From: a virus
UHGV virus genome: UHGV-2016197
Length of the DNA: 26,969 nucleotides
Strand: one strand, 5' to 3'
Shown here: positions 784-22,008 of the stretch, one piece after another
Layout: the number at the start of each line of letters is the position of its first letter
How positions within the stretch are numbered: the first letter of the stretch is position 1
Program-made: the position numbers and the translations under genes
Notes under the pieces: model-generated
Databases searched by the model: none
The model's input: the letters and a program-made list of their open reading frames with translations, nothing else
Told to the model about the DNA's origin: nothing

Positions 784-1929
784 ATGATATTATCATTACA
801 ATATATTAGAGGAATAGCATCATTACTTGTTGTTTTATTCCACTTCAGATTCTTGCTAAATGAGCACTACTCTCAGAAAGATTTGGGTGACCTATTATTT
901 GGGAATGGGCTGTCTGGAGTTGATATATTCTTCATATTAAGTGGATTTATCATCGTATACTCAACAAGAAAGAAGGAAGTTAATGATACTTTCTCATTCT
1001 CAATTAGAAGAATATTTAGAATATACCCATTACTAATCACATGCTGTTGCATGTATTACATAATAAACACTCAATTTCTAACCTATGCTACAGTTGAAAA
1101 CTTTAGAACATTACTTATTTCCATCATTCCATTAAATATAAACTGGAATGAAGGCGCTCCATTCTTTGCCTATAATCTTTTGTACCCGGCCTGGACGATA
1201 ACATATGAAATTGGTTTCTATGTTTTTTTCGGGGTATCAATGTCTATTTCGCATAAATACAGAACAATTATCTGTTCTGTTTTTATAATCATGGTGGTCT
1301 CATTTACACAATACTATGTGAATGGAAATATATCATTTTCAGGTGATGTTAGTGCAGGGTTATTTACAGATAACTGGTTATTAGGATATACAAATGTTAT
1401 TACATCTCCAATGATGTATGAATTCGTTATTGGGATGTTTCTTTCTGAAATATTTACAAACATCAACGAAAGAAAAAGTATTAAAAGGATACTTTCAAAG
1501 TATTCGCTTCAAATACTATGGATTTCATGTGGTATATCCATAATATTATTCATTATCCAGCGACCTTATGGGCATGGATTGAATGGATTTGGGACTATGG
1601 CGATGATACTTATTGCATCATCATTAGTATATGAATACTGCAATATAACACCCAAAATAAAAATATTTAATTTCCTTGGTGAAATATCATATTCTTTATA
1701 TCTAATTCACGCCGTGATACTTGCTTTGTTCTTCTATTATAAGGCAGACCTTGCTGAAATTGGCATAACTGGTGGATTTTCTGTGTTTTTTTCCTTGGTT
1801 ATTATCTCAATAACTGCATCATATCCAATATATATTCTCATTGAAAAGCCAATGATAAATATAGGCAAACGTTTAATTGACAAGAGAAACAATAGCATTA
1901 ATAAAAAAGAAACCGAAATAACAGCGTGA
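784..1929 (+). CDS. Acyltransferase family 3 integral membrane protein; probable surface-polysaccharide (O-antigen) O-acyltransferase, lysogenic conversion moron
   Basis: Translation has the acyltransferase-3 N-terminal pattern (LQYIRGIASLLVVLFH ... GVDIFFILSGFII) and multiple hydrophobic segments. Strongly AT-rich relative to the rest of the window. The ORF-track start at 754 is TTG; first ATG is 784. Sits where Sf6 carries oac (between tailspike and att). Confidence 0.8.
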   Translation: MILSLQYIRGIASLLVVLFHFRFLLNEHYSQKDLGDLLFGNGLSGVDIFFILSGFIIVYSTRKKEVNDTFSFSIRRIFRIYPLLITCCCMYYIINTQFLTYATVENFRTLLISIIPLNINWNEGAPFFAYNLLYPAWTITYEIGFYVFFGVSMSISHKYRTIICSVFIIMVVSFTQYYVNGNISFSGDVSAGLFTDNWLLGYTNVITSPMMYEFVIGMFLSEIFTNINERKSIKRILSKYSLQILWISCGISIILFIIQRPYGHGLNGFGTMAMILIASSLVYEYCNITPKIKIFNFLGEISYSLYLIHAVILALFFYYKADLAEIGITGGFSVFFSLVIISITASYPIYILIEKPMINIGKRLIDKRNNSINKKETEITA

Positions 1930-1941
1930 TAATGACAAAGT

Positions 1942-1968
1942 TAGTGCCGGGATACCCCGGCACTTTTT
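1942..1968 (+). terminator. Rho-independent terminator of the acyltransferase gene, shared with the convergent tailspike 3' end
   Basis: Stem GTGCCGG (1944-1950) / CCGGCAC (1957-1963), loop GATACC, then TTTTTAAT. The tailspike stop codon (1967-1969) lies inside the T tract. Confidence 0.55.
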
Positions 1969-3913
1969 AATCTATTTCGTAAGTGACAGTGATTATCACC
2001 TCTGCATTATTACCCAAAACATTTCGATATATATTCATATTACCTGATAATGTAGTTGCTCCAGTAAGAGTTATATAACTACTATTTGCATCAACCCTTG
2101 GAAGTAAAGCGGTAACTGCTGTTGTTAAATTATTATAGTAGCCTGTACTTCCAACATATGCAGCTTTATTGCTTGATACATATGGTAACCCTCCAATTCT
2201 GAAACCATCTCCTGACCCAATTAAAGTTATACCAAGGTGACATGTTGCCGTTATGATATTGCCACTCCTGACATAATTTCCTTTCTGCTGATAATATGTG
2301 GCATTACCACCTACAGTCGGAATCCAAACTCCAGTTTCTATATCACCACATGACCAGTCTTCTGCTGTTGTTAGTTTTCCAGTAACAATAAATTTACTTC
2401 CCCCACCAGAATTATAAGGAACAAAAATTGGATTTATTCTTGCATAAGTGTTACCGGTCTGCTCATTAAGATCATTTCTACCAATAAGAACCTGACCATT
2501 TTCAAAGTTTGATATCTGGCAGTCAGTTACACTCCAGCCCCTTAATTTTACATCAGCATCCATGACGCCAATAAGCTTGCCAGCGTTACCAATTTTTTCT
2601 TTATGCATATTTACATACACATTTCTTACCGTAACAGACTGAGGGAACAGATAATTAGCAGGATTGGTTTTATCACTTAAAACAGATATTACCCAAGGTC
2701 TGTATTGAGTACTTACTTCACAATAAAATCCATCAATAAGTGTTCCAGATGCCGCTGGTCCAAGTAGTATTCCACCTGTAGAGTGATGCGCACTACCTCC
2801 AATTACTCTCCCCTTAACGCAGTTAATATAGGCAAAATATCCTAAATCTTGATTGTCATAGGCTGACATAGCACAGTCTCTAACTGTTACTCGCGAATTT
2901 CCTCCATCATAAGCTGAGCCATCAGTTTTCTTACCAACTATTGATATAAAGTTACCAATAGCAACTCGACTATAAAAAGTTTTTTTATAACACCCCTCAA
3001 TTAAAATATCCCAGTTTTCAAACTGAGCATATATATCATAAGAGCTGGCGTTCCCATAATCTATGAAATCACAATATCTTATTTTCGGCGTATAAACGGC
3101 ACTTTTTATCTTTATACCACCTAATGCTCTCTCCCCACCTGTGAATCTAATGCCAGTAACGGTGTAATCGCCTTGATAGAAATTATCTGCGGTAGGATTA
3201 TTTTCGTCAGAATCATCACCCAATATAATAGCAAATTCACTCCCTGAATAATTAATTGTAGCCCCCTTATTTGAATATATAGTTACAGGCCTTATAAACT
3301 CCAAAGAATTACTTATTAGATACTCTCCATAAGGAAAAAAAATCTCAACTGGTGGTGAGTACTTAGGTCTGGAGTTTACGTAATTCATAATATTGATTAC
3401 ACCAACATCATCATTCGTGCCATCACCTTTAAACCCAAAGTCTTTCGCGCTCACAAAATCTGCATTTTTATCGTGCTGTGCTCTCTCGATTGCCATAGAG
3501 AGAGGTTGTTTTACACGAACAACTGAATCATCAACTAATAATGGCCCATTTTCAGATAGCAATCTTTCCTGAAATTGATCAGGATCATACTTCAGCACAT
3601 TAGGAAAATAGAACTGCTGCGAACCATACGCATCATAAACAGCCATAGAATGACCTTGCACAGTTACGAATTTGGCAATCTGCCCGTTATATACCGGATA
3701 TCCAGCAGCGTTAATGATGATTGGCTGTGCAACAGAAACGTGAGAGCCGTCTTCGTTTTCCACATAAACCTGAATCTGGTTTTCAGGATTTACAGGGTCA
3801 GTGTCAATTTTACCGATATAAATTTTGCCATTGGCTACGGCTTTAAAAGAACGCGCCATAGTGAAAAGTTGCGAAGGCATCGATACGATCACATTGGCTG
3901 TAATGTCTGTCAT
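1967..3913 (-). CDS. Tailspike protein (P22 gp9-type head-binding N-terminus, divergent receptor-binding domain)
   Basis: N-terminal ~110 aa ([11 protein letters not shown]...[20 protein letters not shown]...[13 protein letters not shown]...VLKYDPDQF) match the P22 gp9 head-binding domain from memory; remainder has beta-helix-like repetitive composition. ATG verified at 3913. Confidence 0.9.
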
Positions 3914-3977
3914 TTAATTTGCTCCAGATACAAGGAATCGCCGCAGCATGGCTACGGTGAGTATTTGTTTGCTTTTT

Positions 3978-4000
3978 GCACTACACTTTTTGTGTAGTGC
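3978..4000. repeat. Perfect 9-bp inverted repeat with 5-nt loop in the tailspike leader
   Basis: gcactacac (3978-3986) ttttt gtgtagtgc (3992-4000); not followed by a U tract on either strand, so operator or RNA hairpin rather than terminator. Confidence 0.4.
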
Positions 4001-4047
4001 TATCTCTCAAGGCCATAGCCGCTGAGTAGCTACGGTGAATTTTGGGC

Positions 4048-4074
4048 ATAAAAAAACCCAGCCGAAGCTGGGTC
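4048..4074 (-). terminator. Rho-independent terminator (minus strand)
   Basis: Minus-strand RNA CCCAGC-UUCG-GCUGGG followed by seven U (plus-strand A run 4050-4056). Confidence 0.6.
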
Positions 4075-4121
4075 GTTGCGTTGGTTATCTGTCAGTAGTT
4101 ATGTACTGGCTGAAGGATTTG

Positions 4122-4147
4122 TACAAAAACCCACCTGACGGTGGGTT
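4122..4147 (-). terminator. Rho-independent terminator immediately downstream of the 322-aa gene (minus strand)
   Basis: Stem AACCCACC (4128-4135) / GGTGGGTT (4140-4147), 4-nt loop, U-rich tail on the minus strand (UUUUUGU). Confidence 0.6.
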
Positions 4148-4153
4148 TCATAA

Positions 4154-5122
4154 TTAGATTTCTGGTTTCATTCTTCCAAAAACCTTTTCTATTCCTTTTT
4201 CGTATTCTTCTCTTGTCTCACTCATCGCTGCGACCCCAAGAAGCTTACCGATATGCTGACGCAAAGCCTTGACACCAATTTCAGAAAGGAACAGATGCAA
4301 CTTATCAGATTGTTTTCCGTTCTCGTCTCGGCTGGCTCGAATCTGTTCAAGGATTTTACCTTTACTCTTTGCTAGCGGGGTGTATATCTGCATGTTGGTT
4401 AGCTGCCCAAAACGAATAGGCCGTCCTTTCTCTGGCCTATTCAGGCCGTACAGTCGATACCACTCCTCGTATAGCTCATCTGGAAATTCCTTTTCATATT
4501 GACGAGCTTCTTCACGAACAAACGCTTTGAACTCGTCAATGACAGCCTGAACTTCTGGACGATAACCAGCAAGCGCATACGCAACCCCCTTAATTCCCGC
4601 CTTAGCGGAGGCATTAATAAGTCTCTGTGCTGCGGCGGCTGCCTTTAACCGTGATTGTGGTAGATCGTCATTATCTTTGGCTTCTATTAGTGCCCTACCA
4701 ATATCAACAATTGCTGTAATGTCATAACCTAACGCTTGATGAACGGTTTTAGACTTCGAAGTAAGTTGAAATTTATAGGGATTTTCCATTTTTCGCTGCA
4801 ATTCTAGATCTCGGTATTTGCTCATATACTGAGCGCCAAGTAGTTGATCTAAATCCCTGGCATGTTCACCAATCCCTAGCAACTGAGATAATCCAGTTTT
4901 CGTAACAACGACAGTTTTCGACTCGTCATCCAGTACATAACATTCAGCATCAATGCCAAAATCATCTAAAAAGTTACCACGATGAGTTGCCCTGAGAATC
5001 TTACTTTTCCATCTTGCAGCAGCTGCTTTCTTTGCTATTTCAGAACGCTGCTCTTTAGTCAGCGACTTTGCGCGAGCGATCCCGCCCTTAGCTTTCCCTT
5101 CACTACTTTTCTTTTCTGTCAT
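4154..5122 (-). CDS. Hypothetical accessory protein, P63C-domain-like, with basic N-terminal putative nucleic-acid-binding segment; function unknown
   Basis: 322-aa ORF; ATG verified at 5122 with AAGGTG Shine-Dalgarno. N-terminus KGGIARAKSLTKEQRSEIAKKAAAARW followed by ATHRGNFLDDFGIDAECYVLDDESKTVV resembles the pattern I recall for P63C-domain phage proteins. Own promoter and two terminators; not part of the P22 core virion gene set. Confidence 0.7.
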   Translation of the reverse strand: MTEKKSSEGKAKGGIARAKSLTKEQRSEIAKKAAAARWKSKILRATHRGNFLDDFGIDAECYVLDDESKTVVVTKTGLSQLLGIGEHARDLDQLLGAQYMSKYRDLELQRKMENPYKFQLTSKSKTVHQALGYDITAIVDIGRALIEAKDNDDLPQSRLKAAAAAQRLINASAKAGIKGVAYALAGYRPEVQAVIDEFKAFVREEARQYEKEFPDELYEEWYRLYGLNRPEKGRPIRFGQLTNMQIYTPLAKSKGKILEQIRASRDENGKQSDKLHLFLSEIGVKALRQHIGKLLGVAAMSETREEYEKGIEKVFGRMKPEI

Positions 5123-5277
5123 AATGCAAGCACCTTGTTGTGATATATGCTTGCATTATATACACTGTACACACATACAAGCAAGCATAAAACCAAAACA
5201 AAATGCTTGCATTACAACCGCGCTACTCCAACTACACATTATCATCTGGTATCCTGCACAAAACTAAGGAGGTTGGT
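5123..5277. promoter_or_regulatory. Divergent control region with four copies of a 9-10 bp operator-like motif (ATGCTTGCAT and its complement) and a perfect TATAAT for the minus-strand gene
   Basis: Motif copies at 5124-5132, 5147-5156, 5181-5188 and 5203-5212 in alternating orientation, forming two inverted-repeat pairs with 14-15 bp spacers. Minus-strand TATAAT at 5155-5160 abuts one copy; AAGGAGG Shine-Dalgarno at 5266-5272 serves the plus-strand ORF. Confidence 0.5.
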
Positions 5278-20356: not shown

Positions 20357-20581
20357 AATTATGACCCTGTAGAGTGGTTGCTTGATTAGGATGTCTTTCC
20401 ATCAGTCCGCCACCACAAAGAATCTTTTTTGCCATAAGGCAGGAGGTTCATCTTTCAGTGGCTGCCAGTGTTATTTCCCCACTTACTGGCTTGGGTTGTT
20501 TCGCGGTACTTCCGTAACTGGTTGCCCAGAATAAATTCCGGTTTCATTATCAAGCCCACCAGTAGATGGGCTTTGGAATGG

Positions 20582-20845
20582 CTACTTCACTTTTGCTTTT
20601 GCTTCCGCTCGCTTACGCCGGCGCTCTTCTTTCCTCTCGGCTTTTGCCATGTCCATGAATGCCTGCATGATCGAGTTCCGCATCATGTAGCTAACAAAGT
20701 GATGATTGACACAGCCGTTTAGGCGCAGCTGCTCGCCAAACTCATCCACCGAGGCCAATGCTTCCATCATGCCCTTCTCGCCTTTCATGAACTCTGAGAA
20801 GTCGCGCCCCGCTCTGGAGGCGCATTCAATGACACGATCACTCAT
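20582..20845 (-). CDS. Hypothetical 87-aa protein with Lys/Arg/Glu-rich C-terminal tail
   Basis: ATG verified at 20845 overlapping the KilA-N stop (ATGA), so translationally coupled; no family recognised. Confidence 0.55.
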   Translation of the reverse strand: MSDRVIECASRAGRDFSEFMKGEKGMMEALASVDEFGEQLRLNGCVNHHFVSYMMRNSIMQAFMDMAKAERKEERRRKRAEAKAKVK

Positions 20846-21339
20846 CCCGGAAGCCCGGGGATCGTAATCTGCAGCTGGTTAGCCAGGGAGTTAATCTCAG
20901 CGACCAACACTGGCTTCGTATAGCGCCATGCCGCCAGCCCTTGTCCGCAGAAACTCGCCATGTCTTTCTTCTGGTCAAACTCATGACATTTCATGTTGAG
21001 CTGCGCACTTAAGCTGTTGCGATGCTGAAGTTCTCCGGTGAAGTAGTCATCGAGGACTTTATAGGCCGCGTACTTGAACCCGGGGTTTAACCAAGCCGCA
21101 TAATCGTAAGCAACAAACTTCCCGCCATATGTTCCACCGTGTACACCGCGCTCAGTAAAAACCACAGATTCGTGGTTTTTCTCCAGCTCGGCTAAGAACT
21201 CTTTGGTCTGCTTGTTTCGCAGGTAGTGGTAAGGCGATTCAGATTCACTTTTACCACTGGCTTTCCACATATCAGTGAGGCAGATCATGCCATCTTCACC
21301 GATACGAATTGGTTGATTGAAGAGGGTTAATGATTTCAT
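20842..21339 (-). CDS. KilA-N domain protein (moron)
   Basis: 165 aa; N-terminal region resembles the KilA-N (APSES-like) DNA-binding domain from memory; ATG verified at 21339; flanked upstream by two terminators. Confidence 0.7.
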   Translation of the reverse strand: MKSLTLFNQPIRIGEDGMICLTDMWKASGKSESESPYHYLRNKQTKEFLAELEKNHESVVFTERGVHGGTYGGKFVAYDYAAWLNPGFKYAAYKVLDDYFTGELQHRNSLSAQLNMKCHEFDQKKDMASFCGQGLAAWRYTKPVLVAEINSLANQLQITIPGLPG

Positions 21340-21454
21340 AGCGTGTACCTACTCTTTGAAATGAACCTTTGCCGCACAGGAAACCAGCCCACCGAGGCTC
21401 GCCAGCACTAACTGGTATCCTCAAAGGCCCATTCCAAAGGGGCAGGTTCGGTGT

Positions 21455-21480
21455 AAAAAACATGCGTTGCGGTACGCATT
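21455..21480 (-). terminator. Second intrinsic terminator after the lysis cassette
   Basis: Minus-strand RNA AUGCGU-ACCGCA-ACGCAU followed by G then UUUUUU. Confidence 0.45.
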
Positions 21481-21484
21481 TATT

Positions 21485-21510
21485 GGAAAAAGCCCCGCAT
21501 CGCGAGGCTC
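21485..21510 (-). terminator. Intrinsic terminator after Rz
   Basis: Minus-strand RNA GCCUCGC-GAU-GCGGGGC (one G-U pair) followed by UUUUUCC. Confidence 0.55.
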
Positions 21511-21540
21511 ATTAAATGGACTTTGTGATTTGCAAAAAAA

Positions 21541-22008
21541 TTATTTCAGGCATTGCGTCCTGATGTATTCCTGCAGGTAGTTAACCTGCGCGGTTATCTT
21601 GTCGATTCCACTTCGTAGACGGTAATAATTGAGTTCAGCATCTGCTGTAAGTCTTGGGCTTTCTCCATCGCCCATGCTGCTGGCTCCGGTCGTTGACTTT
21701 GCACAGGTGGCGGCGACTTGCAGCCGCTTACGGCCAGCAATGACATCGCTATGCAGACGCTCAATGGTTTCTTTCGCATCAGCCAGTTCTCCGGTGTATT
21801 TGGCATCCAGTGCAGCGACATCACGCTGGCGGGTCTGCATGTCTTTAATGGTGGCGGTCGCCAGGAGGAGTTTCTCAGTGGCCTTATCGCGCTGGTCTCT
21901 GTAAGTGATGGCGTTGTCGCGGTAGTGGTTCACGAAGAAAGCCAGTGCGCCGATTAACGCCAGCACCAGCAACTGCAGCCAGTAACGCTTAACCAGTGCG
22001 CTAATCAT
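21541..22008 (-). CDS. Rz: Rz, inner-membrane spanin subunit
   Basis: 155 aa; N-terminal TM segment then [17 protein letters not shown] ... [23 protein letters not shown], closely matching lambda Rz from memory; ATG at 22008 overlaps the lysozyme stop (ATGA). Confidence 0.9.
21594..21779 (-). CDS. Rz1: Rz1, outer-membrane lipoprotein spanin subunit, embedded in the +1 frame of Rz
   Basis: From ATG 21779: [20 protein letters not shown] with a lipobox (VSGC) followed by a Pro-rich mature part; lies entirely inside Rz. Confidence 0.8.

Follow-up and report, generated by a model that had tools for sequence, protein, structure and literature searches.

A KilA-N gene pair behind a predicted structured RNA leader in the late region of a P22-like phage genome

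The virus genome stretch UHGV-2016197 (26,969 nucleotides (nt), analysed whole and hereafter called the window) is a P22-like genome (CUS-3-like, Lederbergvirus) that carries, in a slot with the lysis gene Rz on one side and the packaging genes on the other, two consecutive minus-strand genes. One encodes a 165 aa protein with KilA-N and ORF11CD3 domains, of the HK620 hkbK type (21339-20842), and the other an 87 aa protein, here called p87, of PHROG 875 (20845-20582). We find this pair to be common, mobile and dispensable, and preceded by what appears to be a conserved structured RNA leader that also stands ahead of rha and other regulator genes. On balance, and with only modest preference, we read the locus as an accessory regulator of the late operon whose translation would be gated by the leader, and not as a promoter-driven moron. 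With the same modest preference, and as part of that whole reading, we take the locus to represent a family of interchangeable accessory units in the late operons of lambdoid and P22-like phages. Each such cassette would consist of an intrinsic terminator (T1), a palindromic box, a leader of ~100 nt, one DNA-binding gene of the Bro network and a 3' hairpin, the latter being assigned from the p87-carrying units. The Bro-network gene would combine an N-terminal KilA-N, Phage_pRha or P22_AR_N domain with a C-terminal ORF11CD3 or P63C domain.

The RNA leader and its flanking elements

A non-coding stretch of 201 nt on the minus strand leads from Rz to the KilA-N gene. The initial annotation, made from the sequence of the window, had anticipated an independent promoter within it, at 21340-21454, but a scan of the coding strand from T1 to the gene with the sigma-70 consensus returned no promoter in the window or in the corresponding regions of Trabulsiella (locus L087), HK97 (L090) and Klebsiella phage ST11-VIM1phi8.1 (L092). 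Comparison with related loci instead identifies the interval as a conserved, putatively structured RNA leader with the Shine-Dalgarno (SD) sequence in its basal helices. The segment 21447-21347 is predicted to fold into a long hairpin (minimum free energy -48.7 kcal/mol, z = -3.6). The regions upstream of KilA-N genes fall into about a dozen sequence families that adopt the same predicted fold despite very different sequences, and a hand-made structural alignment of 14 leaders from 7 of these families resolved six helices, P1-P6. A covariance model derived from the hand alignment was used in Infernal to align 26 distinct sequences, and matches the window exactly once, at 21445-21349 on the minus strand (45.3 bits, E = 2e-8).

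Pairing in these alignments far exceeds that of column shuffles: 96.4% of cells are paired in the hand alignment vs 74.2% after shuffling, with none of 500 shuffles reaching the observed value, and 95.9% vs 78.1% in the Infernal alignment. Sliding the 3' partners by 1-3 columns lowers pairing to 36-52% (hand) and 36-54% (Infernal). Both sides have changed in 24 of the 36 pairs of the hand alignment and in 26 of the 32 pairs of the Infernal alignment, the covariation scores are 0.507 vs 0.159 and 0.440 vs 0.156, respectively, and a further count of pairs on the hand alignment agrees. Conservation also extends to two unpaired elements, a 3' bulge of 6-7 nt (GYGMGRA) and an apical strand (CUCUYGGG). 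No match at gathering score was obtained for the window in Rfam 15, in which the leader itself returned nothing at E <= 5 and the leaders of six other loci nothing at E <= 0.1.

In P1 the 3' strand is formed by AAAGG from the ribosome-binding site (AAAAGGUAA-N5-8-AUG), and the helix covaries in the Trabulsiella locus, where it reads CCUAC/GUAGG. The window variant has an additional outer helix (21447-21442 with 21352-21347, ACCUGC/GUAGGU) that covers the SD, so that the Shine-Dalgarno region AAAGAGUAGGU (21347-21357, minus strand), 7 nt before the AUG at 21339, lies within the 3' strands of both P1 and the outer helix. Because the basal helices contain the SD, translation of the KilA-N gene would be limited or conditional.

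Several other interpretations of this interval were examined and set aside. A sequence-only MAFFT alignment analysed with RNAalifold yielded a misleading branched consensus, and was superseded by the structural alignment and then by the covariance model. Pairing of the apical CUCU strand with the bulge GAGA into a pseudoknot proved inconsistent across families on inspection of the alignment, and a leader-peptide ORF that would begin with the ATG immediately behind the T-run is conserved neither in frame nor in presence. The anti-small RNAs AgvB and AsxR are located 3' of pR', and not at the leader, while a 2026 preprint on Pas small RNAs makes no mention of Rha, KilA, antirepressor, spanin or terminase.

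Upstream of the leader, Rz is followed by T1 (21487-21510, minus strand), with the form GAGCCUCGC-GAU-GCGGGGCUU plus a U-run. Its 9-bp G+C-rich stem (21510-21490) and U5 tract (21491-21487) are those of an intrinsic terminator, although the terminator scan of the window missed it; its homologues in L087, L090 and L092 were called as terminators, with 8-9-bp stems, six G-C pairs and U6. Each of the 23 leader copies printed has the T1 sequence, AGCCTCGC-N3-6-GCGGGGCTTTTTT, upstream of it; in a few of them (L207:1639, L203:438, L059:1564) the U-run is degenerate. The second hairpin (21455-21479, minus strand) was called as terminator-like in the window, where its stem (AUGCGU-ACCGCA-ACGCAU, 21479-21462) is followed by U6 (21460-21455). 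A palindromic box, GCGCA-N5-7-TGCGC with the compensatory variants TGCGCT/AGCGCA and ATGCGT/ACGCAT, stands ahead of every printed leader copy, but its U-run is confined to the window type and most relatives lack it. Hairpin 2 is this conserved box in its local form, to which a lineage-specific U-run has been added. Of the two consecutive intrinsic terminators originally proposed behind Rz, T1 stands, and the second is replaced by this box.

At the other end of the unit, the weaker hairpin predicted after the 87 aa gene was found at 20552-20573 (minus strand; AAGCCCAUC-UACU-GGUGGGCUU), with a 9-bp stem and no U-run in the window. This AGCCCAC-N4-GTGGGCT hairpin directly follows the p87 stop codon and is kept in nearly all p87 families, with a U-run in some Klebsiella copies. 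An additional hairpin, UCAGGACGCAAUGCCUGA, spans the Rz stop codon (21546-21563, minus strand) ahead of AAUAAUUUUUUU, and is kept in most relatives with the same Rz 3' end.

The leader in front of other regulator genes

The leader of P22 rha is 99% identical to that of the window over 98 nt (blastn), and the same leader stands ahead of rha in BTP1, HK639 and ES18-type phages (blastn and covariance model). Shiga toxin (Stx) 2a phages carry it ahead of a Rha-ORF11CD3 gene and hold a second copy between endolysin and Rz, ahead of a P22_AR_N-ORF11CD3 gene. It also precedes HK97 gp73, phiEt88 hkbK and a Cronobacter KilA-N gene, and occurs in three successive units on a Salmonella Kottbus contig (L207). 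Where the downstream sequence was printed or the ORF identified, the leader ends a few nt before the start of a Bro-network gene: in the window, P22, HK639, Stx2a phages (both copies), phiEt88, Cronobacter and Kottbus (all three). The single exception is a Scandinavium locus (L085), whose leader is followed by an inserted HNH-AP2 homing endonuclease gene. These matches indicate that the leader is not specific to KilA-N genes and that it defines a cassette family.

Some of these loci show further particularities. In the Scandinavium locus the HNH-AP2 gene (3678-4229) splits a full leader from the KilA-N gene, with the last ~34 nt of the leader duplicated, and phage Dewey apparently has a similar insertion. 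On the Kottbus contig the three leader and Bro-gene units lie in tandem in the late region (1639-3534); p87 is cut there after residue 14, and its codons GAGCGGGGCG join the 3' arm of T1, which looks like a microhomology-mediated cassette insertion. In P22 (L201, NC_002371) the annotated rha start (L201:1543) falls inside the conserved leader RNA (L201 1506-1612), and an in-frame ATG at L201:1612 with its own SD would give a 178 aa Phage_pRha and ORF11CD3 protein, so that the deposited rha start is probably wrong.

The resemblance to rha extends to the protein. In the window protein, the KilA-N domain (PF04383) covers residues 9-101 (1.3e-15, 57.6 bits vs a gathering cut-off of 23.8) and ORF11CD3 (PF10549) residues 109-161 (2.4e-13, 50.5 bits vs a cut-off of 25). 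Pfam finds no Phage_pRha domain (PF09669) in the 165 aa protein, and the Rha-like PHROG 518 matches it at residues 105-163 only. P22 Rha, by comparison, consists of Phage_pRha and ORF11CD3; its C-terminus is 35% identical to the C-terminal region of the window protein. Both genes are accessory, and P22 Rha (orf201) and phi80 Rha occupy the same slot, directly after Rz/Rz1 and before the packaging genes. P22 rha likewise has a T1-type terminator, the box and the leader upstream, but differs in its N-terminal domain and in the absence of a downstream p87. Because the genomic slot, the 5' control region with its leader and the C-terminal domain are shared, we interpret the window gene as a domain-swapped counterpart of P22 rha, resembling Rha in these three respects without belonging to the Rha family.

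The KilA-N domain itself is 32% identical to the N-terminal domain of P1 KilA (E = 2e-9). Both genes are annotated as non-essential for lytic development, but P1 kilA belongs to the C1-controlled lytic replicon operon, has a different C-terminus and has neither such a leader nor a p87. An AlphaFold2 model of the window protein (mean predicted local distance difference test score, pLDDT, 84.6) places an N-terminal alpha/beta domain before two long helices corresponding to ORF11CD3, and a fold search with this model gave only non-significant matches to APSES (Mbp1, Bqt4) and winged-helix proteins. APSES domains are known eukaryotic relatives of KilA-N. P1 KilA is lethal to the host. Rha is reported to be a late-operon gene product that is detrimental to lytic growth without integration host factor (IHF) (PMC4936722). 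The window protein probably acts as a DNA-binding regulator or antirepressor-like factor and would be harmful in excess, which fits both the lethality of KilA and the Rha phenotype.

The p87 protein and the distribution of the pair

The small partner, initially described as having no recognizable family, matches PHROG 875 over its full length (E = 3.4e-54, positions 1-85 of 85), a family of unknown function that includes HK620 hkbL and HK97 p61. The family is very small, accounting at 50% clustering for only 20 of 1.84 billion cluster representatives, and has no Pfam or NCBIfam match. The p87 model (pLDDT 92) consists of three helices (3-20, 26-42 and 48-86), the last with an Arg/Lys-rich end, and a fold search against PDB and BFVD found no relative (best E = 1.7 and 0.15). 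Invariant residues include E7, C8, A9, S10, R11, G13, R14, D15, F16, S17, G44, C45 and N47, and H48 and H49 are nearly invariant (at least 90%); we speculate that the Cys/His cluster may form a metal site. Searches for distant relatives gave nothing new in viral contigs and nothing in a metagenome scan. In one p87 relative a p87-like N-terminal domain is fused to T5orf172/MUG113, a module of the Bro network, and because of this fusion p87 itself may be an autonomous binding module.

The cassette DNA of the window matches 238 phage records, among them HK620 (hkbK/hkbL), several Stx-converting phages, ECP1 and PhiR49_1, where it is annotated as "KilA-N-ORF11CD3". Among 5426 complete Escherichia coli genomes, 380 contain at least 80% of the 1-kb unit, and p87 occurs in 57 phage records, so that the pair is not a chance feature. 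The HK620 genes are the same two as in the window, at 94-100% identity. The initial description of a KilA-N gene followed by an ATGA-coupled 87 aa gene behind Rz is confirmed by the ORFs, the Pfam matches and the sequence at 20845-20842, where the p87 ATG overlaps the TGA of the KilA-N gene. Across about 200 loci a KilA-N gene precedes p87 wherever upstream DNA is available, with six exceptions. Of the 135 loci in which the upstream ORF is readable, 133 join the two genes by ATGA or a 2-nt gap, and two by a 1-nt gap. The N-terminal domain of the partner is always KilA-N, and the C-terminal domain either ORF11CD3 or, as in HK97 gp73, mEp235 and Klebsiella phages, P63C. In HK97 the same p87 lies in the same slot behind gp73, but is frameshifted (p61, L090 2501-2734) and diverges after residue 54, and the KilA-N domain of gp73 is 23% identical to that of the window. 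We found no functional study of hkbK/hkbL or HK97 gp73 in the literature.

The pair also moves. The Rz genes upstream of it are 47-100% identical, the cassette itself 96-100%, and in Klebsiella phages the same pair lies among tail genes; the constancy of the cassette behind diverse Rz genes and in these tail regions marks it as a module that spreads horizontally. As expected of a moron, otherwise similar genomes differ in whether they carry it: lambda-type relatives lack it, P22 has rha in its place, and the more distant KilA-N-ORF11CD3 genes of Erwinia phage phiEt88 and Cronobacter have no p87. Copies of kilA are frameshifted in five loci (L009, L043, L044, L082, L083). The pair is dispensable, since frameshifted kilA copies and the frameshifted HK97 p61 occur and P22 carries rha instead. 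Frameshifts, absences and mobility thus speak against the contrary case considered at the outset, in which both genes would be conserved, essential parts of the packaging operon in all relatives. Six loci in tail regions (L151, L153, L154, L156, L157, L160) have neither a KilA-N gene nor the leader ahead of p87, and in L151 the upstream gene has been reduced to its last ~60 nt. E. coli-type cassettes at 94-98% identity in a Candidatus Nanosynbacter metagenome-assembled contig (L082) and in Actinobacillus phage vB_Apl-pPE4 (H87, H206) likely reflect mis-binning, contamination or very recent transfer.

Expression of the cassette and alternative explanations

In the reading we favour, the cassette would be transcribed only by Q-modified polymerase reading through T1 from the late promoter, and would otherwise be silent. 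Late-only transcription is suggested by the co-orientation of the cassette with adjacent late genes in all three contexts examined, the strong T1 upstream, the lack of a recognizable promoter in four families and the late expression reported for the P22 equivalent. The leader hairpin, holding the SD in P1 and, in the window, in the outer helix, would keep translation low or conditional until released by unfolding, by RNase III cleavage of the long duplex or by a bound factor. SD-sequestering mRNA leaders and RNase III-processed phage leaders, such as the lambda N leader, are known systems. The leader resembles them in being a long 5' hairpin with the ribosome-binding site at its base and, in the window type, a near-perfect duplex of ~30 bp, which would make a good RNase III substrate, but it has no sequence or Rfam kinship to them. 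Ribosomes re-initiating at the AUGA overlap would then produce p87 in amounts proportional to those of the KilA-N protein, which p87 may assist or modulate.

A number of observations weigh against this reading. Late read-through, occlusion of the SD in vivo and translational coupling are all deduced from sequence. Both leader alignments were fitted to the structure, one by hand and the other by a model derived from the first, and the pairing counts are therefore inflated. G-U pairs are few in most families, and sense and antisense folds are nearly equal in stability: the mean difference (sense minus antisense) is -3.2 kcal/mol, with the sense strand more stable in 11 of 14 leaders. Only for the window type, with 4 G-U pairs and a fold of -40.9 kcal/mol in the sense vs -25.9 kcal/mol in the antisense orientation, is a strand-specific RNA function thus well supported. 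A conserved box and an A/T-rich hexamer, located at a fixed distance upstream of the leader, could constitute an unconventional or factor-dependent promoter. As for a joint function of the two proteins, p87 is 96% identical between HK97 and the window and the adjacent KilA-N domains 23%, which leaves no signal of co-evolution between the partners, and p87 occurs without a KilA-N gene in the six tail-region loci.

Morons are extra dispensable units between conserved late genes, with their own promoter, a terminator-like 3' hairpin and horizontal spread. Of the terminator-bounded moron initially proposed, we retain the discrete, mobile and non-essential unit with hairpins on both sides that travel with it, but not the promoter. 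Like the classical examples (HK97 gp15, lambda bor/lom), the cassette is a dispensable insert among late genes with a 3' hairpin and horizontal spread; unlike them, it has no recognizable promoter, carries an upstream terminator and a putative translational leader, and in the window its 3' hairpin lacks a U-run. A true moron would place a promoter between T1 and the leader, formed by the box and the A/T-rich hexamer, and would be expressed from the prophage for superinfection exclusion or abortive infection in the manner of BstA. We regard this as unlikely. Insulation by T1 and the downstream hairpin, which both move with the unit, is in its favour, as is the presence in many families of TATCAA, TATAAA, TATTAA or TACAAT 6-9 nt before the first leader helix, behind a possible operator palindrome. 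These hexamers, however, are missing in the window and P22 variants and mostly do not end in the T that is conserved in -10 elements, while look-alikes of sigma-54, sigma-32, sigma-28 and IHF sites sought by eye in the box region were not consistent across families. Added to the negative sigma-70 scan, the orientation matches that of the late genes in the contexts examined and P22 rha is reported to be late.

A defence role of the kind that a true moron would imply finds a partial parallel in BstA, which, like the window protein, has an N-terminal KilA-N-like DNA-binding domain and occurs in prophages of the same hosts. By contrast, BstA is larger, with a distinct C-terminal domain, carries an anti-BstA DNA element within its gene, and is expressed from the prophage next to the repressor. 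It does provide a precedent for KilA-N proteins acting as prophage defence proteins (PMC8585504). In PADLOC neither BstA nor any other known defence model was matched, but a weak local match to the candidate PDC-S22 (1.2e-8, residues 60-90 only) was returned, together with QatB at E = 0.014.

The near-symmetry of the fold energies and the scarcity of G-U pairs in most families would also be expected if the T1-box-leader block acted at the DNA level, as a recombination linker or palindrome for swapping Bro-gene modules, with the RNA fold being incidental. Mosaic joints do lie exactly at the edges of the block: the 99% identity between P22 and the window spans leader positions 1-98 and is lost beyond them, T1 forms the junction to very different Rz genes, and p87 of the Kottbus contig is joined to T1 by microhomology. 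A linker would nonetheless need sequence identity, yet seven divergent families keep 96% pairing with 24-26 double-substituted pairs and conserve asymmetric bulges and single-stranded blocks, and in every case the element is on the coding strand and stops at the SD of the gene that follows, all of which makes this explanation improbable in our view. We give equally little credence to a toxin/antidote-like pair, in which a KilA-N protein that is toxic like P1 KilA would be neutralised by p87. The tight coupling (133 of 135 junctions), the exclusive occurrence of p87 behind KilA-N-type genes and never behind Rha or P22_AR_N types in the loci examined, and the 32% identity to P1 KilA with its known lethality would all fit such a pair, as would the toxicity reported for Rha in IHF-deficient hosts (PMC4936722). 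Against it, a frameshifted p87 beside an intact gp73 leaves HK97 viable, no p87 accompanies the KilA-N-ORF11CD3 genes of Cronobacter and Erwinia, and p87 does not co-vary with its partner, stands alone in six loci and is fused in one relative to T5orf172, as would suit an autonomous binding module.

Beyond the late-operon regulator with a gated leader, the T1-box-leader block might represent an undescribed, factor-responsive phage riboregulator gating Rha-, KilA-N- and P22_AR_N-type regulators in the late operons of P22, HK97, HK620 and Stx phages, an extension that we hold to be quite unlikely. The factor could be, for example, the shared ORF11CD3 or P63C domain in an autoregulatory loop, the Arg-rich helix of p87 acting on the apical strand or bulge, or RNase III- or IHF-linked control. 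If so, the old Rha/IHF phenotype could be explained, and classic model phages would hold a new riboregulator.

Neither ORF is new, both having been recorded before as uncharacterised genes, and there is nothing unusual in their belonging to the Bro network. Within the reach of Rfam and of the searchable literature, older subscription literature aside, the covariation-supported leader with its terminator and box, common to rha, kilA-N and P22_AR_N-type genes, is new, as are the restriction of p87 to KilA-N-type partners and the reading of the window gene as a head-swapped Rha. The BTP1 transcriptome paper gives no detail on the rha leader. Among the unexplained genes of enterobacterial temperate phages, Stx phages included, those of the Bro network (Rha, KilA, Ant-like) rank with the commonest. 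The leader, T1 and box shared by those in late operons offer a concrete, testable handle on the timing and mode of their expression, and turn "KilA-N moron" annotations into instances of a single swappable regulatory cassette. The exclusive link of p87, with its tiny family, no structural relatives and a conserved Cys/His cluster, to KilA-N-type genes likewise gives an approach to what the KilA-N domain does.

The genes around the cassette are all on the minus strand. Upstream lie an HNH-AP2 endonuclease gene (23266-22766), the holin (22791-22438), the lysozyme (22526-22005) and Rz (22008-21541; Phage_lysis, 3.8e-39) with an embedded Rz1-like ORF. Downstream of p87 follow a gene of the gp49/Sf6-66 family, a DUF2560 gene (P22 orf80 family), terS and terL. 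A further non-coding stretch of 195 nt (20357-20551, minus strand) extends from the 3' hairpin of the cassette to the gp49/66-family gene, and its sole Rfam match is non-significant (Proteo-phage-1, E = 4.8, 20460-20495). In Klebsiella phage ST11-VIM1phi8.1 (L092), a match resembling the sar antisense RNA (5170-5234, minus strand; 37.6 bits, below the gathering score of 43) adjoins Arc-family genes and a Bro-N gene.

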